From assembly GCA_945875925.1 (NCBI GenBank), contig CAMCME010000002.1, forward strand, positions 1,119-65,118: 64,000 nt of DNA. Direction: 5' to 3'. This document shows positions 6,668-49,152 of the stretch, in pieces (the first letter of the stretch is position 1; each line of letters starts with the position of its first letter). This stretch comes from Rickettsia typhi. Lineage in GTDB: Bacteria > Pseudomonadota > Alphaproteobacteria > Rickettsiales > UBA1997. The notes under the pieces were generated by a model. The model did no database searches. It worked only from the letters and a program-made list of their open reading frames with translations, and had not been told where the DNA came from. The position numbers were made by a program, and so were the translations under genes.

Positions 6668-8257
6668 TTACTGATGAGATAATCTATCATTAAGACCAGC
6701 ATGGTCGAATGAAGCAGAAGGAGTTTGATTCAAGAAAATTGCTAAAAATTCTTCAATCGCTTTTTTAAGAGCAACTTCTGTAGTTTCAGAAATTTTTTGC
6801 TCTTGTTTGATTGAAGCCAAAATTTCTGGATGTTGAGATTTTAATTTGCGTAAGAATTCTTTTTCAAAACGCACAACATCTTTAACCGGAACATTATCTA
6901 AGTAACCTTTAACACCAGTGTAAATTGAAGCAACTTGGTCTTCTAAAGTAACTGGAGAATATTGTTCTTGTTTCAAAAGCTCGGTTAATTTGCGACCTTT
7001 ATCAAGCAATTTTTGAGTAGCTTGGTCAAGATCAGAACCGAATTGAGCAAAAGCTTCAAGCTCACGGAATTGCGCCAAGTCAAGCTTAATAGTTCCAGCA
7101 ACTTGCTTCATAGCTTTCGTTTGTGCGGCAGAACCTACACGAGAAACTGAAAGACCTACATTCACCGCTGGTTTGATACCTTTGTAGAATAATTCTGTTT
7201 CTAAGAAAATTTGTCCGTCAGTAATCGAAATTACATTGGTTGGAATGTAAGCAGATACATCGCCAGCTTGAGTTTCGATGATTGGAAGTGCGGTTAATGA
7301 ACCACCACCCATTGCATCAGACATTTTAGCAGCGCGCTCTAATAAACGAGAGTGAACATAGAATACATCTCCCGGATAAGCTTCGCGTCCTGGTGGGCGA
7401 CGAAGAAGAAGTGACATTTCGCGATAAGCAACAGCGTGCTTAGAAAGATCATCATAAGCAACCAAAGCATGCATGCCATTGTCGCGGAAATATTCGCCAA
7501 CTGTACAACCAGTATAAGGAGCGAAGAATTGTAGAGCCGCACTTTCAGAAGCAGTTGCAGAAACAACCACAGAATATTTCATCGCACCAGCATCTTCCAA
7601 AGTTTTAACGATTTGGGCAACTGTTGATCTTTTTTGGCCGATCGCAACATAGATACAGAAAAGTTTTTGCTTTTCATCATTATCAGCGTGAGCTTTAGCT
7701 TGGTTGATGAATGTATCTAACACGATTGCAGTTTTACCAGTTTGACGATCCCCAATGATCAATTCTCTTTGTCCACGACCAATTGGAATCAAACTGTCAA
7801 TTGCTTTGATACCCGTTTGCATTGGTTCGCCAACTGATTGACGAGCGATAATTCCAGGAGCTTTAACTTCAACACGACGATATTCAACATCTTGTAACGC
7901 ACCTTTTCCGTCGATTGGATTTCCAAGAGCGTCAATAACGCGGCCCAAAAGACCTTTTCCAACTGGAACTTCTACAATTTTACCAGTTCTTTTAACATCA
8001 GAACCTTCCTTGATTGTTTGAGCATCACCGAAAACTACGATACCAACATTGTCAGTTTCAAGGTTAAGTGCCATGCCTTTAACACCAGAAGCAAATTCAA
8101 CAAGTTCACCAGCCTGAACATTATCAAGGCCATAAACTTTTGCAATTCCGTCACCAATTTTAACTACTTCACCGATTTCTTTAAGTTCCGCAGAAGTTCT
8201 GAAATTCTCGATTCTTTTTTGTAGGATGTTGGAAAATTCTTCGACTCTAAATTCCAT
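6668..8257 (-). CDS. atpA: F0F1 ATP synthase subunit alpha
   Basis: 529-aa ORF with P-loop GDRQTGKT and conserved [22 protein letters not shown]. Confidence 0.95.
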
Positions 8258-12214: not shown

Positions 12215-12718
12215 TTGATTCAAAATAACATGACCATTACAGATAATAAAATCCTAATCATAGACAATGTTTTTACGCAAGCCGAATGTTCAGCCTTAAT
12301 TGAATATTATAATATTAGCGGCCCCACCCATAAATGGCAGAATTTTCTGCCGATGACTATAAAACAAAATGATGAGTTTTTAAGCCCTAGAATTAAGAAA
12401 ATAGAAAATTTAGCAAAAAATAATTTTGATCAAAATATAGTTATCGATTGGTGTGAAATTGTTAGATGGCCTGTTGAAGCTTTCCAAAATTTGCATTTGG
12501 ACACTTCAAATAAAAACACCATTTTAACATCAATCACTTATTTGAATAATGAATATGATGGCGGCCAAACTTTTATATATGAAGATATTGAGGTCATTCC
12601 AAAAATAGGCAGAACGGTGATTTTTAACGGCCAATTTTACAAACATGGTGTGAGAAAAATTCTATCAGGATCAAGATATACTTTACCAATTTGGTATAAA
12701 ATGAATGATGCTGTTTAA
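12215..12718 (+). CDS. 2OG-Fe(II) dioxygenase, prolyl 4-hydroxylase-like (paralogue 1)
   Basis: HxD...H...R triad (HLDTS, YKHGV, SGSRYTLPIWY) and YLNNEYDGGQT motif. The likely start is the ATG at 12230 rather than the TTG at 12215. Confidence 0.7.
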   Translation: MIQNNMTITDNKILIIDNVFTQAECSALIEYYNISGPTHKWQNFLPMTIKQNDEFLSPRIKKIENLAKNNFDQNIVIDWCEIVRWPVEAFQNLHLDTSNKNTILTSITYLNNEYDGGQTFIYEDIEVIPKIGRTVIFNGQFYKHGVRKILSGSRYTLPIWYKMNDAV

Positions 12719-12850
12719 GCTAAAATTTATAGCATGTTTTTGCTGCTAAAAAATCTAGGAATGAAGCAATTTATCTTTGCTTGATTATTTCCAAGCTGGA
12801 TCCTAGAAGGAAATCAAATTTACAATTACTCGAAAATAAATAAGTTCAAA

Positions 12851-13372
12851 ATGTCCTCTACAAACAATAAAATCATAGTCCTAGATAATGTTTTTACCAA
12901 AGAAGAATGTTTATCAATGACCTCTTATTATGATAACAACATCTCATCTTCTCAATTCAGCAAAGAAACTCTAAATAACTTTATCGACATCAATCTAAAT
13001 GATAGTTTTTTATCTCCTAAAATTAGAAAAGTAGAAAACATCGCCAGAAATAATTATGATCCAAATATAGGAATTGATTGGGGCCATGTTGTAAATTGGC
13101 CAGTTGGAGCTTCTCATAATTTGCATCTTGATTTCAGAAAACAAGACACCGTTTTATCATCAATAACATATTTAAATGATGATTACACTGGCGGAGAAAC
13201 CTTCATAAAAGATGATTTACAGATTATTCCAAAGGTGGGCAGAACTATATTTTTTAATGGTCAGCAATATGTACATGGTGTGAAAAAAATCTTATCAGGA
13301 TCAAGATATTCTTTACCACTTTGGTATAAAATGTATGACCCTGCTTTAAACGGACCGAAAATTACGCGTTAG
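12851..13372 (+). CDS. 2OG-Fe(II) dioxygenase, prolyl 4-hydroxylase-like (paralogue 2)
   Basis: 173 aa. Collinear with the preceding ORF (HLDFR, YVHGV, SGSRYSLPLWY, YLNDDYTGGET). Tandem duplicate. Confidence 0.7.
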   Translation: MSSTNNKIIVLDNVFTKEECLSMTSYYDNNISSSQFSKETLNNFIDINLNDSFLSPKIRKVENIARNNYDPNIGIDWGHVVNWPVGASHNLHLDFRKQDTVLSSITYLNDDYTGGETFIKDDLQIIPKVGRTIFFNGQQYVHGVKKILSGSRYSLPLWYKMYDPALNGPKITR

Positions 13373-16490: not shown

Positions 16491-17546
16491 ATGAAAACTT
16501 ATACAGAATTGCCATCGTCCAAAAAAACAACTCTTCCTGAAATAGAGAATTTATCAGGAGTAGTTGAAGAAAAGATTAAGAATGTCTTTATAAAAAATAT
16601 TGTAAAAAAATTTCTTGAAAATCTAGAATCACAAGAAGAAATATATGAAATCAACTCATTTATCGATACTTATAGTGAAGATCACGGGCAGAAATGTGAG
16701 GCATTTGTCCGAGCCATTAAAATGATGCGTTCCTTTACAGAAGGAAAATCAAAACCTAGCAATAGGGATATTGATAGGTTTGATAGTTTTGTAAAAAGTG
16801 TTGGAGTAGATTTTTGTTTTCAACTTACCAATGAGAGTAATGGATTGCTGCATTGCTTAACTCAGATTGGTGGACCACTAGAATTTCTAGAAGTTCTAAA
16901 AAATAATAATGCCGATTTTGCTTCCTCTAAAAGCGATTACCTTAACACACCGCTTCTTTGGGCAATAGCAAATGCCCAAAATGATTTCGCTGTAAGTTTT
17001 CTAGATTTCTCTTCTACCAATAATCTAGATGTCGGAATTGATCATCGCGCTTATGGTCACAATACCGCCTTGCATTTGGCCGCTGCAAAGGGATATGTCG
17101 ATCAAGATTATGACAAGGTAAAATTAAGAACATCAAGCGCCCAACTTACTCAAAATCTTATTAACAACGGCGCCAATCCTAATATTCTAAATGATCTTCA
17201 GTATAGCCCTCTTGACTTGGCGGTAATTCGTGGGGATTTAGAAACTACTCAAGCAATTTGTTCATCTTCAATTCTCAGCCACGAAACAATTACAAAGGCA
17301 CAAACTATAATTGAGGAAAGACAAAAAAATTCTCAGAACAATCCTGAATCTGCTAAAGAAGTAATATCTTTAATAACCCCAGAAAAAACTTTTCTAAATC
17401 CAAATGCAGGCAATTTTACAATAGAAAATATTCAAGAATTACAGAATTTATTAGAACAGACAAAATCTAAAGGACCAAGTAGCGCTATATCTCTATCAAA
17501 AGCAAATTCACTTATGCCCATCTCTGAACGCTGCATAATTTCATAA
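16491..17546 (+). CDS. Ankyrin-repeat protein (candidate host-interaction effector)
   Basis: 351 aa with at least three ANK-like units (TPLLWAIANAQNDFAVSFL; NTALHLAAAKGY; SPLDLAVIRGDLETTQAI preceded by LINNGANPN). No signal peptide. Confidence 0.7.
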   Translation: MKTYTELPSSKKTTLPEIENLSGVVEEKIKNVFIKNIVKKFLENLESQEEIYEINSFIDTYSEDHGQKCEAFVRAIKMMRSFTEGKSKPSNRDIDRFDSFVKSVGVDFCFQLTNESNGLLHCLTQIGGPLEFLEVLKNNNADFASSKSDYLNTPLLWAIANAQNDFAVSFLDFSSTNNLDVGIDHRAYGHNTALHLAAAKGYVDQDYDKVKLRTSSAQLTQNLINNGANPNILNDLQYSPLDLAVIRGDLETTQAICSSSILSHETITKAQTIIEERQKNSQNNPESAKEVISLITPEKTFLNPNAGNFTIENIQELQNLLEQTKSKGPSSAISLSKANSLMPISERCIIS

Positions 17547-24527: not shown

Positions 24528-24731
24528 TTAGTGGCTGTAAGGCATTTTGAATTTCATAATGCTGTGAGAATGTCCAGGAGAAAGTACTGCTTGATTACGC
24601 AGCTGTCTGATTCTTCTGTTACTCTTCTTACCTAAATTATGCCTTTTTCCGGCTTGTTTATGAACAAGTTTTCCTGTTCCGGTAACTTTGAATCTCTTCT
24701 TAGCCCCGCTGTGTGTTTTCATTTTCGGCAT
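24528..24731 (-). CDS. rpmI: 50S ribosomal protein L35
   Basis: 67 aa: [21 protein letters not shown].....AGKRH. Directly upstream of rplT. Confidence 0.93.
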
Positions 24732-24930
24732 ATCGTTTTGGTAATTTAAATTTTAAATTAAAGCAGTTTTGAGGCCGCTAATGGACTAGTGCTAACGCAT
24801 AAGTCACTTCTTCAGGCGCAAAGGTAGAAAGCCTTAACCTAGGAACCTAGAGACCACGAAAAACATCTTCGTGGATTATTCTCGAGTATTTTAAAATCAG
24901 CATCCGCCGATATTAAAATTCAAAGAATTT

Positions 24931-25007
24931 TGGTGGGATTGATAGGACTCGAACCTATGACCAAGACGTTATGAGCATCCTGCTCTAACCAACTGAGCTA
25001 CAATCCC
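24931..25007 (-). tRNA. tRNA with CAU anticodon (elongator Met-type or lysidine-modified Ile2; not initiator, as 1:72 is paired)
   Basis: Manual cloverleaf: GGGATTG TA GCTC-AGTTGGTTA-GAGC A GGATG-CTCATAA-CGTCT TGGTC ATAGG-TTCGAGT-CCTAT CAATCCC A CCA. Confidence 0.9.
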
Positions 25008-25074
25008 GTAAAAACTACAACTCCTACCGACCTCAGTTGGTAGTTTAATTTTGCGCTGCTAATGCAGACGGGGG

Positions 25075-25090
25075 CTGAGCTACAATCCCG
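25075..25090 (-). repeat. Duplicated 16-nt copy of the tRNA(CAU) 5' end
   Basis: CTGAGCTACAATCCCG occurs at 24993-25008 (inside the tRNA) and again at 25075-25090, 82 nt upstream on the tRNA strand. Confidence 0.85.
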
Positions 25091-25212
25091 CTGCTGAAAA
25101 ATTCCCAAGCAAAGTAAGTCGGTTTTTTTGAAAAACTATCTTGAATTACATGGAAAGGGCCGCGCAAATTATCGGCCTTGTTGGTTTTTGCAAGGAATTT
25201 GTTGAACCAGCC

Positions 25213-25297
25213 TTGTCATCTCGAACTTTAGTGAGAGATCTAATGAGGCTCCTGCCGACAAACTCATGAGATCTCTAGCTTCGCTCGAGATGACAGG
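25213..25297. repeat. Palindromic element, family A (GTCATCTCGAAC variant)
   Basis: Inverted arms TTGTCATCTCGAAC..GTGAGAGATCT / AGATCTCT..CTCGAGATGACAGG, 18 nt downstream of the grpE stop. Confidence 0.85.
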
Positions 25298-25314
25298 TTG
25301 CATTTAGAATTTAA

Positions 25315-25908
25315 TTAAGCTTTAGGCTTCGCAACTCCAACTAGCGCTGGGCGAATCAAGCGATCAGAAATTGAATATCCAGCTTGAATAACTTGTACAA
25401 CAGTTCCTTTTTCAGCGTCACTTTCAATTTGGGCGATTGCTTCGTGGAAATTGTGATCGAATTTTTCGTTAAGTGGCGAAAGTCTTTTGATCTGATTTTT
25501 TTCTAGAACTTTCATCATTTCTTTTTTGGTCATATTCATGGCCTCGAAGAAATTTTTGAAAGTTGGAGATTTTTCAATTTCTGCTTGTGGAGAATTGTCA
25601 GTGGCTAAAAAGAAATTTTCTACAACCACAACTAAATCTCCAGCAAATCCTGAAATAGCATATTTGCCGATTTTTTCCATTTCTTCACGAGAACGCCTTC
25701 TGACATTTTCAGTTTCAGCCATAGCGCGCAAAACTTTGTCATTTAAATCGATGACAGCTTTTTCTAACAAAGCGATTTTTTCGTCTTTTGCTGATTCAAG
25801 ATTTTGTTCTGGCTGATTTTGCTCAGCTAAATTTTCCTCAGACAAATTTTCTTCAGGCAAATTTTCCTCAGGCAAGTTTTCCTCAGGCAAGTTTTTATTT
25901 TCTTCCAT
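25315..25908 (-). CDS. grpE: Nucleotide exchange factor GrpE with N-terminal pentapeptide repeats
   Basis: 197 aa with a GrpE core (LRA.AE.EN.RRR; C-terminal GY...DR.IRPA.VGV). The N-terminus is (P/S/A)E(E/Q)N(L/Q) repeated six times. Confidence 0.9.
25801..25890 (-). repeat. Tandem 15-bp coding repeat (about 6 units) in the grpE 5' region
   Basis: Consecutive units ATTTTCCTCAGGCAA and variants, in frame, encoding NLPEE-type pentapeptides. Confidence 0.9.
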
Positions 25909-28030: not shown

Positions 28031-28115
28031 CCTGTCATCCCGAACGCATGCGAGGGATCTCTTGAGTATTAGCACCGAAACTCAAAAGATCCCTCACTAT
28101 GTTCGGGATGACAGG
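28031..28115. repeat. Palindromic element, family A (GTCATCCCGAAC variant), probable clpX terminator
   Basis: Inverted arms CCTGTCATCCCGAACGCATGCGAGGGATCT / partner. It lies 26 nt after the clpX stop and is followed by TTTTTTT on the plus strand. Confidence 0.85.
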
Positions 28116-28134: not shown

Positions 28135-28386
28135 TTACTTCCTTATCTTTATTTCCAGCGCATGCAGACCTTTTTTAAACTCATCTTCTAGCAATTTATT
28201 AACTTCTCGATGTGCATTAACTGGGCTTAAATTCTGAAATTTATCTGCAGAAATAATCACCGCAAAATGTGTTTCGTTAGTACCATTATCTCCAGCGTGG
28301 CCCTGATGTAGGTGAGAATTATTTTTCACTTCTAGAAATTTGGGCTGAAGATTTTTTTCTAACTTCTCAATTATTCTTTCTTTCAT
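28135..28386 (-). CDS. BolA-family protein (second copy)
   Basis: 83 aa with N.SHLH.GHAG....THF...I.S..F...S.V..HR.V...L......LHAL. Confidence 0.75.
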   Translation of the reverse strand: MKERIIEKLEKNLQPKFLEVKNNSHLHQGHAGDNGTNETHFAVIISADKFQNLSPVNAHREVNKLLEDEFKKGLHALEIKIRK

Positions 28387-28647
28387 TGTTAGTAAATCTG
28401 TTGATAAATTGTTAATAACTATCGACTTACCAACAGATAAAATTTTTCATCAAAACTTATCAAATTTTCCAACATTTTATTAACAGTTTTACTAGATGTT
28501 GATAAAGTTTTTTAGAAAAATTTTGCCTGTTAATAACTTTTTTATAAACACTATTTTCAAGTGTTTTGAGGTTTTTAATCTGTTAATAAAATTGTTAGTA
28601 AATTCTAATTAACCAATCAACAGCTCAATTATATTTATAATAATTAA
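28387..28647. other. Candidate chromosomal replication origin (oriC): DnaA-box-like cluster upstream of hemE
   Basis: Exact TGTT(G/A)ATAA (= TTAT(C/T)AACA, one mismatch from TTATNCACA) at 28399-28407, 28410-28418, 28477-28485 (reverse), 28497-28505, 28528-28536 and 28581-28589. Near matches at 28457-28465 and 28593-28601. A very AT-rich tract at 28626-28670 abuts hemE. Confidence 0.55.
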
Positions 28648-29694
28648 ATGAATAAATTAATTAATACTCTTCTCAAGAAAGAGAATCTTGATCAAGAAAA
28701 AATAAATCCGCCAATTTGGATTATGAGACAAGCCGGAAGATATTTACCAGAATATCGCGCCGTAAGATCGAATGTAACTAATTTTTTAGAACTTTGTTAC
28801 ACACCAAAATTAGCTTCAGAAGTTACTCTACAACCAATCTCTAGATTTGATTTTGATGCAGCAATTATATTTTCAGATATTCTTGTAATACCTGACGCTC
28901 TAGGAGTTAAGGTTGAATTTGTAAAAAATGAAGGACCGAAATTACAAAAAATTTCTAAGTTAGAAGATTTAAAAAACTTAAAGACGGGCAATATTAAAAG
29001 ACATTTGCAGCCAGTTTTTGAAGCTCTAGCACTTACCAAATCAAAATTAGATAGCAGTAAAGCCTTAATTGGATTTTCAGGCTCTCCTTGGACTTTAGCT
29101 TGTTATATGATTGAAGGTGGTGGATCGAAAAATTTCGAAAATACTCGTAAAAGTGCAATCAAAGATGAAGAATTTTTTGCACAGTTAATTGAAATTTTAA
29201 CCCAAAGTATAATTGAATATCTATCTCACCAAATCAATGCTGGTGCGGATGTGGTAAAATTATTCGATTCTTGGGCGGGAGTTTTGCCACCATCACAATT
29301 AAGAAAATGGGTGATTGAACCGACTAAAAAAATTGTTTCTGAATTGAGAAAACTTCATCCAAACACTCCTTTAATTTGCTTCCCGCGCGGCATTGGCATT
29401 ATGTATGAAGAATTTTCTAGAGAAGTCGGATCAGCTGGTTTGGCTTTAGATCAAACGGTTGAAAAAAATTGGGCGAAGAAAAATTTGCAGGAAAATTTAG
29501 GACAAGTGGTGCAAGGAAATTTGGATAATATTTTGCTTGCTTGTGGATCGAAAAAAGAAATTGAAAAAGAGGTTTTGAGTATTTTAGAAACTTTTGGAGA
29601 TCAGCCTTTTATTTTCAATTTGGGTCATGGAATTATTCCTGAAACTCCGATTGAAAATGTGGAGTTGGTGATGAAGTTGGTTAGAGGGAATTAG
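28648..29694 (+). CDS. hemE: Uroporphyrinogen decarboxylase
   Basis: 348 aa with PPIWIMRQAGRYLPEYR and the FSDILVIPDALG and DSWAG motifs. Confidence 0.92.
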   Translation: MNKLINTLLKKENLDQEKINPPIWIMRQAGRYLPEYRAVRSNVTNFLELCYTPKLASEVTLQPISRFDFDAAIIFSDILVIPDALGVKVEFVKNEGPKLQKISKLEDLKNLKTGNIKRHLQPVFEALALTKSKLDSSKALIGFSGSPWTLACYMIEGGGSKNFENTRKSAIKDEEFFAQLIEILTQSIIEYLSHQINAGADVVKLFDSWAGVLPPSQLRKWVIEPTKKIVSELRKLHPNTPLICFPRGIGIMYEEFSREVGSAGLALDQTVEKNWAKKNLQENLGQVVQGNLDNILLACGSKKEIEKEVLSILETFGDQPFIFNLGHGIIPETPIENVELVMKLVRGN

Positions 29695-42252: not shown

Positions 42253-42366
42253 AAATCTTTTCAAAAGATTTTGTGAATATTTCCCCAAATTAGTTTTTGT
42301 TTTGCCTCGATTTTTTGTGCTGGGTGTTTTTTCCGTTATTTCTTCTTTGCTGTTATTTCTCCTCTG

Positions 42367-42449
42367 CTGTCATTTCGAACGCAGTGAGAAATCTCATTAG
42401 GCTTTACGGATGAACTTATGAGATTTCTCACTGCGTTCGAAATGACAGG
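42367..42449. repeat. Palindromic element, family A
   Basis: CTGTCATTTCGAACGCAGTGAGAAATCTCAT arms. The arm sequence is identical to copy 1728-1830 from TCATTTCGAAC inward. Confidence 0.9.
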
Positions 42450-44341: not shown

Positions 44342-44741
44342 ATTTTATTTTTAAAATTGTGTAGAAAAGTTGGTATTTAGAAGAGTGTTCTAGCAGCTAT
44401 TTTATCAAGACTTCAAATGAATCCGTTTTAATATTATATCTAAAGCATCAAGTTTGATTGGCTTTGATATTGTATCTTCCCCCGAATTTAGGGCCACCAG
44501 ATATGGCTTTGAGAACTTGATTGTGAAACAAGTCGCGAGTTTATTTACAAACTAATTATTGTAAAAAACCGATTTGGGAAAAAATTAGAAAACTTCAAAA
44601 GATAAATTAATCATCTAACAGCAGCGTGGGAGATTCTAGGTGGCGTGTTTTCAAAGCACAAGTTGTTATTGGTTAGAATGTGGGATGGAGAATCTAAGGA
44701 GAAGGATTAGAAGTGTATTTATCAATCGTTATTTCTAACAT

Positions 44742-44755
44742 CTGTCATCTCGAAC
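44742..44755. repeat. Solo left end of a family-A palindromic element
   Basis: CTGTCATCTCGAAC with no inverted partner nearby. Confidence 0.5.
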
Positions 44756-45013: not shown

Positions 45014-46678
45014 TTATTGATGTAGATTTAGATAGTGCTTTGTTGCTTCAGTATCCAAAAATTTAGGATAAGTTTTTACTAGCCTCTTTCCATTCTCATC
45101 GAAGCTCATTGCTTCCATTAAACCGCTTTCAGCAACATCAATATTTTTTTCTCTTATTCTTAAATAGTTCTTTTGAGTCCATCCTAAAATACATTTATGA
45201 AGAGCTTTAACTGCTCTATAATCAGGCATAATTGTTTTACTTTCCATTTGAAGACCCATGACATTTAGACATAGCCCTAAAATTTTTATAGATAGGTAAT
45301 TAGGGAATTCTTCCATCCTTTTTATTTCTGAATAAATACGGCGACATAGTCGGGAATGAATTATTTTTTGGGCATGATTTCTTTGATCAACAAAGCTAAA
45401 ATAATTATTCCATACTGTATTATGCTGCACTTGCCAGCTAGTATCAAAAGGAGCTTTAACGGAAGCAACATTGGACAAGACATCAAACATCGATTCGACT
45501 AGAACATCATAGTAGTCATTAAAGTGACCACTAGATTTTAATTTTCTCCTAATTGCTGATCCGTCTTTTTCTTTTAACAGCTTTACTAGATCTTTAATAA
45601 AATCTGAAACTACCTCAAGTCTTCGATAAGCATCAGTATTATAAAAATCGGAAACATTATTGATTTTATAAATATCAGTACATCTTCCAGTAATGAATCC
45701 TAGCGTTCTGTTAAAAGTGGTTTGATGAGTATCGATAGTGCTATTCTCTAAGCAGTCTTTTACAAAAATCAGAAAAGATTTTGTGTAAACTTTTAACTGC
45801 GATGCGTCTAAGCTCGACAGTGTTTTGTAGTCTATGTCAAAGGGAGTTTGATGAGATAAAGAGCTGACTAATTTACAGTTTCCAAAAACTGCTTTACTGA
45901 ATGGTTTTATATAGCCAATTAGACCTGAATTATATCCCTCATCTTCATGATACAAAATTGAGTCTTTATCAAGCAATGCTTCAGCAGCAATGTTGGTTGC
46001 AAAAGTACCAATCGGCAGTTGATATTTTCTATTTCGAGTCATTTCCTCAAAGAATGCTATGGCTGTAATCGGAGTGTTAGATACAATGTATTTGCAGAGC
46101 TTTCTATTTCCGATTAACAGAAGTATTTCGTATGCACATTGACCAATATCAAATTTATTTTTTGTGTTACGATTTTTTTCATCCTTCTTTTGCCAGCTTG
46201 GAATAACAATATTTGAATATTTAACAATATTTGGGGCTGATCGATTTAACTCGTTGGCGATAATGGGTAAATCTACTGCTGATCCTTTTACAATCTCCCG
46301 ATAAAGCTCTTGAATAAATCTGGTATAATTTTTCTTAGAAAAAACCGGAGGTATTATGAATGCATACCGAATCCAGCTAGATAATAAGATAACAAAAAAA
46401 GTAGCGAAGCTTGATTGCCAATAAGCCTGAACACTTAAAAAGCTTGGCATCATCCATCCTTTTTCAAACCAAACGTCACTTAATAAAGTTCCAACCGCAA
46501 TTAACAGGGTCAGTAAAAAGGTTTCCGTTAGCAAAGATATCTTTTCGAACGATGTTGGAGCTATAGAGATACGAAATTTGTAGCGCGTATCAGTGATTGT
46601 ATATAGCACCATTAAAAGCGAAAATGCTGCGATAAATTCAGCAAAACCAAAAATCGGATTTTTTATTGGGATTGGCAT
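45014..46678 (-). CDS. Orphan membrane-anchored protein (about 4 N-terminal TM helices plus ~420-aa soluble helical region), no recognisable family
   Basis: Long uninterrupted ORF (554-569 aa depending on the start; ATG at 46678 preferred). It has hydrophobic N-terminal segments and I recognise no catalytic motif. Confidence 0.55.
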   Translation of the reverse strand: MPIPIKNPIFGFAEFIAAFSLLMVLYTITDTRYKFRISIAPTSFEKISLLTETFLLTLLIAVGTLLSDVWFEKGWMMPSFLSVQAYWQSSFATFFVILLSSWIRYAFIIPPVFSKKNYTRFIQELYREIVKGSAVDLPIIANELNRSAPNIVKYSNIVIPSWQKKDEKNRNTKNKFDIGQCAYEILLLIGNRKLCKYIVSNTPITAIAFFEEMTRNRKYQLPIGTFATNIAAEALLDKDSILYHEDEGYNSGLIGYIKPFSKAVFGNCKLVSSLSHQTPFDIDYKTLSSLDASQLKVYTKSFLIFVKDCLENSTIDTHQTTFNRTLGFITGRCTDIYKINNVSDFYNTDAYRRLEVVSDFIKDLVKLLKEKDGSAIRRKLKSSGHFNDYYDVLVESMFDVLSNVASVKAPFDTSWQVQHNTVWNNYFSFVDQRNHAQKIIHSRLCRRIYSEIKRMEEFPNYLSIKILGLCLNVMGLQMESKTIMPDYRAVKALHKCILGWTQKNYLRIREKNIDVAESGLMEAMSFDENGKRLVKTYPKFLDTEATKHYLNLHQ

Positions 46679-46701
46679 AACATGGCATATGCTCAAAACT
46701 A

Positions 46702-47155
46702 TTAATTTACATGCTGGTTCCATACTAGATACTTGTTTAGTCCCCTTGAATAATGGACAGGGTTTTGGTGAAAAACTTTCGAGTTTTTCTTAAACTCTTG
46801 GATAAGAAATTCAAAAGGTGTTTTAAAGGCAAGTGATTTTAGTTTTTTCGCAAAATTATAGGCAAGCATGAATTGATTCAGATGCTTTTCCAAATGCTCT
46901 AAACTGTCATAGTGATAGGTTTTTGTAGTGGCGTCTTTAATCGTTCGATTGGTTCGCTCTACTTGTCCATCTACTTGTCCATTGGTCCAAGGGTGTCTGA
47001 ACTTTGTGAGCTTATGTTTAATCGCATGTTTTTTGCAGAGTAAATCAAATGGGTGAAACGATTTGGGGCGCAAGTGTTTGACTAGCAAAGCGTAAGTGAA
47101 CTGAGCTCCGTTTTCCGTTAAAATTCTGTGAATCTTGTAAGGACAAAGCTCAATT
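46702..47155 (-). mobile_element. Remnant of an IS481/IS3-type transposase (DDE 'rve' integrase core, C-terminal part only)
   Basis: PYKIHRILTENGAQFT...HPWTNGQV(DGQV)ERTNRTIK...YNFAKKLKSLAFKTP. There is no N-terminal HTH part and no terminal inverted repeats were seen. The 5' junction position is approximate. Confidence 0.7.
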
Positions 47156-47304
47156 ACTTCCTGCAAAAACTCAATCACCTTTTCATCTTGATTAATCAAA
47201 GCAAAAACTTCCGCATCATCTTCGCGCCATTGTCGCAGAATTAATCTTTTAGTTTCGATGTTTTTTTGATTATTTGCATGAAACTCCAACTGCCTGCGAA
47301 ACAT
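47156..47304 (-). pseudogene. N-terminal fragment of a GNAT (RimJ/RimL-like) acetyltransferase fused in frame to the IS remnant
   Basis: TKRLILRQWREDDAEVFALINQDEKVIEFL resembles GNAT N-termini. The rest of the acetyltransferase is absent. It overlaps the pyrD 3' end. Confidence 0.45.
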
Positions 47305-48340
47305 TCTTAAACCCATCTTTTTTCACCAGCTCATTCAAGTCTTTTTTAATTCTTTCAACCAGTCCAAATCCTTCATAAATAAAGGCAGAATAAATTTGCA
47401 CCAAAGATGCGCCACTTTTAATTTTTTCGTAAGCATCCGCAGCGCTCGCAATTCCACCCACACCAATCAAAGGAATTTTGCCGCCAGTTAATTTGTAAAA
47501 ATTCTGCAACACTTCATTAGATTTTTTAAGTAAAGGCGCGCCACTTAATCCGCCAGTTTCAGACGCATATTTACTTTTCAAATTCAGGTCGCGCGAAATT
47601 GTAGTATTGCTGATAATCACGCCATCAATTTGGTTTTTTAAAACAGTTGCAGCAATTTGCTCTTGCTCGGCTGTTGTCAAATCTGGCGCTATTTTAAGTA
47701 ATATCGGAACTTCACGATTATATAATTTTTTAAGCTGAGATTTTTTCTTAATAATCTCGCCCAAAAATAAATCCAATTGATCTTCTTTTTGTAAATCACG
47801 CAGATTCTTGGTATTTGGCGAAGAGATATTAATGGTGATGTAAGATGCTGGAGAATAAAACCTGTCCATCAGCTTCAAATAGTCGCTCACAGCATCTTCT
47901 GTATCTTTATTTTTGCCGATATTGGCGCCTAAAATTAGATTATCATTTTTTTCAGAAGCAGTTTTAAAAAGATTTTCAGCAAAATTTATTTCGCCTAAAT
48001 TGTTAAAACCCAAACGATTAATAATCGCTTTATCTTCTTCAAGGCGAAAGATTCTGGGTTTGTTATTTCCGCTCTGCGCTAAAGGCGTCACAGTTCCACA
48101 TTCCACAAATCCAAAACCAAATTTAGACAATTTTCTGACAACTTGGGCATTCTTATCAAAACCAGCGGCCATGCCAATAGGGTTTTTAAAATCAAGGTTC
48201 AGCAACTTCTGATTGAGATTTTCATATTCCTTAACTTGTGGAAAACATGGATTAAATTTTAGAAATTTAATGGCTAAATTATGAGCAGTTTCTGGTTCAA
48301 TTTTGAAAATCAGTGGACGAATAATTTGATAAAAATTCAT
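47270..48340 (-). CDS. pyrD: Dihydroorotate dehydrogenase (quinone), class 2
   Basis: 356 aa with N-terminal MNFYQIIRPLIFK..PE.AH, the GFNN.G pattern, NISSPNT and a C-terminal GAS.VQ.YSA..Y.G. Confidence 0.92.
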   Translation of the reverse strand: MNFYQIIRPLIFKIEPETAHNLAIKFLKFNPCFPQVKEYENLNQKLLNLDFKNPIGMAAGFDKNAQVVRKLSKFGFGFVECGTVTPLAQSGNNKPRIFRLEEDKAIINRLGFNNLGEINFAENLFKTASEKNDNLILGANIGKNKDTEDAVSDYLKLMDRFYSPASYITINISSPNTKNLRDLQKEDQLDLFLGEIIKKKSQLKKLYNREVPILLKIAPDLTTAEQEQIAATVLKNQIDGVIISNTTISRDLNLKSKYASETGGLSGAPLLKKSNEVLQNFYKLTGGKIPLIGVGGIASAADAYEKIKSGASLVQIYSAFIYEGFGLVERIKKDLNELVKKDGFKNVSQAVGVSCK

Positions 48341-49053
48341 TAATTGGTTTCCGGTTTTTTTCTTGATAAAAGCAGTAAAGTTGTGGACACAGCCACTATA
48401 ATTAAAATCACATCTGAAGAGCGTTTAAGCAAAAAATTATCAGATAATTTATCTTTCAAGCGCGTCCATTTTTTTTCATCAACTTCAAAAGTTTGAGATT
48501 TATTTAGCCACACATCTTGGTCTTCTAGTTTTTTGCCTAAATAATATTTTTCAATTTCGCGATGCACAGGATGATTGGTTGAAGTCATAGGATTTTCTGA
48601 CAAAATGTCCTGAGTTTCAACTTTTTGATCATCAACCAAATTAGCAATTTCCGCGACATTTCTGGCCACTAAAAATAAGGCCACAAAAACTATTAAAACA
48701 ATTGCTGCGATGGAAATTGTGCCGAAAAAGATCTCTATCAAAGACTGATTTTCTGTTCTTTTAGGAGATTTTACAAAAATTGTGCTGTGAGTTGAAATCA
48801 AAAATAAAACCACCATCGAATAAGCCACCAAACCCAAAACAATTTCTTTAAAACTATTATAGCTGGAAATAGAAATGCTTAAAAAAAGCACTAAAATTAA
48901 ATGAGAAATTATCAGGCTGATGATAGTGGAAGTGCGAGTTTTGACTTTGGTGATGATCAAAAAATTGATTACCACAAAAACCAATATCACTAATAATTTG
49001 GGGTCAAAAAGCATTGATATATTAGGTTGGTTTTGGATCACAACTGCTGTCAT
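48340..49053 (-). CDS. Polytopic membrane protein of unknown function
   Basis: 237 aa with about five hydrophobic helices. Its TAA overlaps the pyrD ATG by 1 nt (TAATG). The annotated ATG lies inside repeat 49047-49132, and an alternative start MLFDPK lies 13 codons in. Confidence 0.5.
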   Translation of the reverse strand: MTAVVIQNQPNISMLFDPKLLVILVFVVINFLIITKVKTRTSTIISLIISHLILVLFLSISISSYNSFKEIVLGLVAYSMVVLFLISTHSTIFVKSPKRTENQSLIEIFFGTISIAAIVLIVFVALFLVARNVAEIANLVDDQKVETQDILSENPMTSTNHPVHREIEKYYLGKKLEDQDVWLNKSQTFEVDEKKWTRLKDKLSDNFLLKRSSDVILIIVAVSTTLLLLSRKKPETN

Positions 49054-49132
49054 CTCGAACGCTAGTGAGAGATCTCATGAGGCTTTAACTCGATAAACTC
49101 ATGAGATCTCTCACTAGAGTTCGAGATGACAA
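49047..49132. repeat. Palindromic element, family A (GTCATCTCGAAC variant)
   Basis: CTGTCATCTCGAACGCTAGTGAGAGATCTCATGAG arms with an inverted partner, between the dapD stop and the membrane-protein start. Confidence 0.9.
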
Positions 49133-49152
49133 GTGCCTGAAAGGAAAAAAAT

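Follow-up and report, generated by a model that had tools for sequence, protein, structure and literature searches.

hemE is a conserved marker of the alphaproteobacterial origin of replication: an origin directly beside it has been mapped experimentally in Caulobacter crescentus (Cori), and others have been predicted in Rickettsia (PMC1914354, PMC6393856). The hemE gene in the 64-kb stretch of DNA analysed here (referred to below as the window) poses the question of whether the short spacer upstream of it, shared with a divergent bolA-like gene, is the place at which this chromosome begins to replicate. A preliminary description of the sequence had proposed as much, appealing to the same two precedents, and the proposal is now supported by the conservation of the sequence boxes in the spacer, a local step in strand skew, the association of a double box with dnaA elsewhere, and a low-stability element. 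We consider it very likely, judging from sequence comparison, that an uncultured freshwater alphaproteobacterium has its chromosomal replication origin (oriC) in the bolA-like/hemE spacer.

The spacer and its genomic setting

The predicted oriC core is the spacer at 28387-28647, which is 261 bp long with 20.7% GC and extends from the ATG of the bolA-like gene on the left (complement of 28384-28386) to the hemE ATG at 28648 on the right. The bounding genes are:

28135..28386, minus strand: bolA-like gene, 83 aa; left boundary, with transcription directed away from the spacer
28648..29694, plus strand: hemE (uroporphyrinogen decarboxylase); right boundary, TIGR01464 at 392.6 bits, above cutoff

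The bolA-like assignment comes from a Pfam match (PF01722, BolA) on an identical product, the NCBIfam BolA match being weak. From left to right the gene order is grpE(-), clpP(+), clpX(+), a palindromic element with perfect 17-nt arms, bolA-like(-), the spacer and hemE(+), followed by a murU-like nucleotidyltransferase gene(-) and an ABC exporter(-), and the remainder of the window consists of ordinary chromosomal housekeeping genes (pnp, truB, atpHAG, purK, purB, purM, pyrD, uvrA, bamA and others). We found no dnaA, parAB, gidAB, rho or COG1806 gene in the 64 kb; a tblastn search with an E. coli DnaA sequence as query gave no dnaA match in the window or in the first 80 loci of the comparison set, and no DUF299 or CBS-domain gene is present among the ORFs scanned in the window. 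Rfam and tRNA scans returned just two tRNAs, both distant from the spacer.

The hemE product is identical to those encoded on freshwater-metagenome contigs and in the MAG GCA_947440615.1, and the MAGs that stand closest at species level carry the labels Rickettsiales, Pelagibacterales or alphaproteobacteria. Elsewhere in the window a 351-aa ankyrin-repeat protein is encoded near two 2OG-Fe(II) oxygenase paralogues arranged in tandem (the coordinates given for this group are 16491-17546 (+) and 12215-13372 (+)); an ankyrin-repeat protein is unusual for bacteria that live freely, and its presence is a hint of association with a host. In other strains a 335-aa CbiA/AAA_31 (ParA/MinD-like) gene lies between rpmI and grpE (5515-6522 in L081), and the window at 24731-25315 is without this gene and has a tRNA-Met and a palindromic element there instead.

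Palindromic elements of this type form a dispersed intergenic family of about 85-90 nt, with arms CCTGTCATCCCGAAC and GTTCGGGATGACAGG, whose arms match at 12 places, where 0.5 would be expected:

25212-25297: palindromic element
28031-28115: palindromic element, the clpX/bolA copy, with its perfect arms, an inner 16-nt hairpin and a T-run
42366-42449: palindromic element
44741-44755: palindromic element
49046-49133: palindromic element
992, 18989 and 35366: lone arms

They look like MITEs or Rickettsia palindromic elements, and they may double as bidirectional terminators. A further structural difference is seen at about 35.9 kb, where the HI0933-like gene is followed in the window by purB, an AAA ATPase gene, engB and rimK, and in L082 (17281-21047), which encodes an identical hemE product, by proB, ompA and rho. 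The two gene orders reflect either a rearrangement that distinguishes near-identical strains, no more than about 7 kb from the putative origin, or a chimeric assembly.

A conserved cluster of DnaA-like boxes

Six perfect copies of the 9-mer TGTTRATAA had been noted in the spacer, five in one orientation and one reversed, and they lie where the preliminary description placed them: at 28399, 28410, 28497, 28528 and 28581 on the plus strand and at 28477 on the minus strand, all within 28399-28589. The window as a whole contains 10 copies against 2.4 expected; the four outside the spacer are scattered singletons, and elsewhere in the 64 kb no segment of 261 bp has two or more. The spacer would be expected to contain 0.05 copies on average, and none of 100,000 simulations under a first-order Markov model, with the spacer's own sequence as training set, reached six, so that the earlier claim of an enrichment beyond composition stands. 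Where two further one-mismatch variants had been reported we count four (28387 and 28593 on the plus strand, 28427 and 28542 on the minus strand), and there are in addition two weaker, conserved box-like sites, at 28466-28474 and 28614-28622.

Read on the opposite strand the 9-mer is TTAT(C/T)AACA, in which the variable base falls at position 5, the N of the DnaA consensus. In that reading, with the conservation of the alignment columns that each one covers, the sites are as follows:

28387..28395, minus strand: DnaA-box variant TTACTAACA, one mismatch; column conservation 0.77
28399..28407, minus strand: DnaA box TTATCAACA; conservation 0.94, kept at about -249 from hemE in relatives
28410..28418, minus strand: DnaA box TTATTAACA; conservation 0.93, alignment columns T34-A41 invariant
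28427..28435, plus strand: DnaA-box variant TTACCAACA, one mismatch; conservation 0.81, TTATTCACA or TTATTAACA in relatives
28466..28474, plus strand: weak box TTTCCAACA; aligned to a perfect TTTTCCACA in L002/L003
28477..28485, plus strand: DnaA box TTATTAACA, the sole reversed copy; a perfect TTATCCACA in L002, L003 and L005
28497..28505, minus strand: DnaA box TTATCAACA; conservation 0.86
28528..28536, minus strand: DnaA box TTATTAACA; conservation 0.94
28542..28550, plus strand: box-like TTATAAACA; poorly conserved (0.63), possibly a chance match
28581..28589, minus strand: DnaA box TTATTAACA, the best-conserved box; conservation 0.98
28593..28601, minus strand: DnaA-box variant TTACTAACA, one mismatch; conservation 0.88
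28614..28622, plus strand: proximal box-like CAATCAACA, directed at an AT-rich element; TAATTCACA or AATTAACA in relatives

About 10-12 predicted boxes make up a conserved layout. Counted from the hemE start, it begins with a distal head-to-tail triple at -261, -249 and -238 (28387, 28399 and 28410, phased by 12 and 11 bp) and continues with an oppositely oriented group around -221 to -171, single boxes at -151 and -120, a hemE-proximal pair at -67 and -55 (28581 and 28593, with 12-bp phasing) and the box-like site at -34. In this last site the ACA is invariant, as are alignment columns A244, C245, A246 and C248, and it points to a short GC cluster (GCTC, 28623-28626) that follows directly, and then to a 40-bp element of about 93% AT across the hemE start. 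A cluster of at least three to four boxes in a short non-coding region is the usual mark of an oriC, and here six exact and four to six near matches to TTATN(A/C)ACA are contained in 261 bp. The canonical TTATNCACA box does not occur in the window's spacer, and scans of it for strict CtrA, IHF, GATC and GANTC sites returned zero sites. An Irr/ICE-like half-match, TTTAGAA at 28511-28517, was considered and set aside, as it is not conserved in alignment A1.

About 20 species-level relatives, whose hemE is 60-86% identical, have the divergent bolA-like/hemE pair with a spacer of about 250-300 bp. These carry 2-12 copies of the 9-mer per locus, compared with 0-0.2 per 500 bp elsewhere, and nearly all of the exact 9-mers in the 10-21 kb available from each relative fall less than 350 bp upstream of hemE. 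Both offset and orientation are shared with the window at about -261, -249, -238, -171 (the reversed box), -151, -120, -67 and -55, and in a 17-sequence alignment the box columns have a conservation of 0.86, against 0.68 for the rest of the spacer (Mann-Whitney p = 8e-14). The left neighbour differs in L006, L010, L018 and L019, and the boxes remain with hemE. In L006 about 2.4 kb is inserted between bolA (7099-7335) and the box cluster, with the boxes directly upstream of hemE (10001).

The spelling of the box departs from the canonical one, and it was described at the outset as a near-DnaA box. The alignment strengthens this reading, since canonical TTATCCACA and TTTTCCACA occupy the sites in relatives that correspond to the window's reversed TTATTAACA (28477; L002, L003 and L005) and its weak TTTCCAACA (L002/L003), and other aligned positions switch between TTATTCACA and TTATTAACA. 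Because the window's boxes align with canonical boxes in relatives, a clade consensus of TT(A/T)TN(A/C)ACA can be derived, and we take the 9-mer, on this comparative basis, to be the clade's DnaA box, TTAT(C/T)(A/C)ACA, a form of the canonical TTATNCACA in which position 6 accepts or favours A. At the equivalent place upstream of hemE, alphaproteobacteria that are further removed (L047, L050, L051, L055 and L058) have 3-4 canonical TTATNCACA boxes, and the gammaproteobacterial hemE loci have no canonical boxes there.

A scan of metagenomes for the tandem double box TGTTRATAA-NN-TGTTRATAA provides a separate view of what the 9-mer does. Of the 120 places returned, 25 lie within 500 bp of dnaA, on contigs that span a wide range of G+C content; had the motif no connection with DnaA, well below 1% of the places would be expected to fall near dnaA. 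Four of the 120 lie next to hemE, two of them in this clade and two on contigs of about 25% GC whose hemE is about 41% identical. On these last two (L099 and L175, at 25-26% GC and with 41% hemE identity) the double box with A at position 6 is about 110 bp upstream of hemE, which suggests, from the sequences, that hemE-linked origins with this type of box extend beyond the window's clade. Another contig, L096 (Ga0272448_1000492, 24% GC), contains 124 copies of TGTTRATAA in 13 kb, with 24 of them within 600 bp; the copies probably form an array of tandem repeats, in an AT-rich genome unrelated to the window's. The TTATCAACA spelling has been used before in the context of replication origins, being present in oriC-derived oligonucleotides of Thermoanaerobacter tengcongensis (PMC1888806) and predicted as a DnaA box in the oriC of the Cyanothece linear chromosome (PMC4674748).

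Strand skew, helix stability and competing explanations

In most relatives the raw GC skew switches sign, and in the window it passes from -0.054 to +0.015. In the window, raw skew is confounded by gene orientation, and we therefore used an orientation-corrected regression in which the top-strand GC skew at third codon positions (GC3) of each ORF is fitted on its orientation and on the side of the breakpoint on which it lies. At the spacer this side term is positive for 19 of 20 relatives: on the hemE-sense strand the skew is negative to the left and positive to the right, which is the polarity of an origin; one relative (L023) has the opposite step. When the 14 genomes with full ±10-kb flanks are pooled, a breakpoint scan has its optimum at -100 from the hemE start, with a weighted RSS of 635 compared with 984 without a breakpoint and a step of +0.23, and the window's own best origin-polarity breakpoint is at 28326, the scan point beside the spacer. 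As a negative control, 17 gamma/beta-proteobacterial hemE loci gave a mean of -0.009, with 9 positive, and as a positive control distant alphas with canonical boxes gave +0.10 to +0.17. The right flank is non-syntenic among the relatives and several loci have neither flank in common; because the step is kept in L010, L013, L018 and L019, whose flanks differ, it is positional rather than gene-specific. The skew switch looked for at an oriC thus takes the form here of a local GC3 step, seen in the individual relatives, in the pooled scan and against the controls.

Gene orientation itself shows no obvious strand-bias switch at this locus, as the preliminary description had cautioned when it pointed to the many minus-strand genes on both sides: over the first 10 kb on the right of the spacer, a rightward fork would be co-oriented with only 24% of coding bases, and most genes are head-on. 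The caution was correct and carries little weight, because strand bias is weak across the clade (pooled values of 0.56 to the left and 0.50 to the right).

The AT-rich stretch that had been pointed out next to the hemE start does exist, and it corresponds to the following feature:

28627..28666, no strand: candidate DNA-unwinding element, about 93% AT, spanning the hemE start codon and adjoining the box cluster

Among all 40-mers in the 64 kb this one is the least stable, with a nearest-neighbour dG of -34.2 compared with -37.6 for the runner-up, and in 13 of 17 relatives the minimum of stability over -700..+400 from hemE falls at this same position. On computed stability, the spacer is therefore accompanied by a candidate for the AT-rich element that an oriC would use for unwinding, and at a conserved position. 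We make no claim of a DnaA-trio motif for the window: after the GC cluster the relatives have TAATAAAAT and the window has AATTATATT, so that the trio reading (TAATAA after the GC cluster) is suggestive in the relatives and not convincing in the window.

A cluster of DnaA boxes need not be an origin. In E. coli, datA and DARS are sites that titrate or reactivate DnaA, and the spacer could be a site of that kind, or a DnaA-regulated divergent hemE/bolA promoter, with the origin lying elsewhere. The boxes do cover the sole promoter space of two divergent genes, in which promoter-like hexamers are at chance level (four sites against 2.9 expected in a promoter/terminator scan, the one nearest hemE ending 3 nt before its ATG), and the window is without any other origin-linked gene. 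Its skew is also lower again past 44.7 kb: positive skew is confined to 28.6-~44.7 kb and ends at a GC3 step of opposite polarity. Beside this step, at ~44.7-47.3 kb, are two ORFs without a Pfam match (45014-46723 and 46702-47316), and contigs assembled from short reads of the same species stop there or have another gene (211 aa in L087/L089, 554 aa in L088); this region is probably a strain-variable island. Against an origin elsewhere, the step at the spacer has origin polarity in nearly all relatives, including loci with different flanks, a conserved low-stability element adjoins the boxes, and linkage of oriC to hemE is the alphaproteobacterial rule (PMC1914354). We regard a DnaA-binding cluster that is not the origin as quite improbable.

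It is less probable still that the 9-mers are not DnaA boxes at all and are half-sites for CtrA or another TTAA-reading factor. The attraction of this explanation is that TGTTAATAA holds a TTAA, so that two such boxes in tandem at 11-bp phasing also spell the full CtrA site TTAA-N7-TTAA; one or two strict sites of this form are present in 13 of 17 spacers against 0.30 expected, most of them made by tandem boxes and chiefly by the pair at alignment column 43, and CtrA sites feature in the Caulobacter and Rickettsia origins (PMC1914354, PMC6393856). The window's spacer, however, has no strict CtrA site, and two of its six exact boxes read TTGA, a change that breaks the half-site and falls at the degenerate position 5 of the DnaA box. 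Moreover, the homologous TTATCCACA and TTTTCCACA of relatives are without TTAA, several boxes are isolated and unpaired, and the double box stands beside dnaA in many contigs of wide G+C range. Even if these were CtrA half-sites, the locus would still be an origin. At column 43 of alignment A1 (window 28401-28415) most of L001-L024 have the strict TTAA-N7-TTAA, and the window has TTGA-N7-TTAA.

A single array read by both DnaA and CtrA, in site-for-site competition, is a related idea that we think unlikely; if true, it would be a more compact form of the partial overlap seen in Caulobacter. In a weaker form, the specificity of DnaA domain IV in this lineage would have moved from C to A at box position 6.

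The least probable explanation is the alternative raised in the preliminary description, an operator array unrelated to replication for a local transcription factor (haem or iron acting on hemE, or stress on bolA), with which it agrees that the cluster stays beside hemE in every case, including those in which bolA has been displaced (L006) or is missing (L010, L018, L019); this founders on some twelve sites of mixed orientation and irregular spacing, unlike a dimeric operator, on the equivalence of the sites to canonical DnaA boxes and the dnaA association of the double box elsewhere, on the skew step at the spacer, on the absence of a conserved Irr-type ICE motif on inspection of alignment A1, and on the lack of a second cluster, whether within the window or across the ~1.5 Mb that the related loci cover.

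Predicted operation and comparison with known origins

With oriC as the preferred reading of the spacer, the general DnaA/oriC model offers a sequence of events by which it might act. DnaA-ATP would fill the strong boxes, oligomerise along the arrays phased by 11-12 bp and melt the AT-rich element, and helicase loading would then lead to bidirectional replication; opening may also be aided, if the analogy with Caulobacter holds, by transcription of hemE through the AT element. DnaA binding, the site of unwinding and firing at the spacer are all predictions of this model.

An origin coordinate would be of practical use in a lineage known only from metagenome bins, as it helps in orienting and closing assemblies and also serves coverage-based estimates of growth rate (peak-to-trough ratio) and the design of shuttle vectors. 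Over 64 kb by itself the expected change in coverage is about 2%, which is below noise. Scans restricted to TTATNCACA would miss this origin, since all of its strong boxes have A at position 6.

In its general architecture the spacer resembles other bacterial origins, with a TTATNNACA-oriented box that faces a GC cluster and then an AT element, and with head-to-tail boxes at 11-12-bp phasing. The R1 box of E. coli oriC has the same orientation relative to the 13-mers as the 28614-28622 site has relative to the AT element. It differs from the E. coli arrangement in that dnaA is not adjacent, GATC clusters are absent, and a DnaA-trio is not convincing in the window.

Both this spacer and the Caulobacter Cori lie immediately upstream of hemE, and they differ in most other respects. 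The left neighbour there is COG1806/duf299 and here it is the bolA-like gene; Cori has G-box and W-box classes where TTATYAACA is found here (PMC6393856); and the window's spacer is without the strict CtrA site, IHF consensus and GANTC that would mark a CtrA-controlled origin of the Caulobacter type.

The closer comparison is with the origins predicted by Ioannidis et al. (2007), which lie between hemE and COG1806 in Rickettsia and between hemE and COG1253 for Wolbachia, Ehrlichia and Anaplasma; Neorickettsia deviates from this boundary pattern (PMC1914354). Under the Brassinga/Ioannidis criteria as given in PMC1914354, a hemE-linked origin is an intergenic region bounded by hemE, as this spacer is, and its partner is COG1806 or COG1253, where the partner here is the bolA-like PF01722 gene. 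Those origins are 380-620 bp long, compared with 261 bp here, and have 2-5 boxes, compared with about 10-12; the supplements to that study give box counts, without box sequences (PMC1914354). All of the strong boxes here have A at position 6, and the TTATNCACA scan applied to the Rickettsia group finds none of them. In common with the Rickettsia, Wolbachia, Ehrlichia and Anaplasma origins, this is an AT-rich intergenic region bounded by hemE, with DnaA boxes, an AT-rich element towards hemE and a local shift in skew, and in that group too the partner boundary gene varies by lineage (PMC1914354). The bolA-like gene, with clpP-clpX behind it, would be a third type of boundary gene in the family of hemE-linked origins, and the spacer would in this sense be an ordinary origin of a familiar kind that occurs in a new lineage and spells its boxes a little unusually, and that leaves the understanding of replication initiation unchanged.
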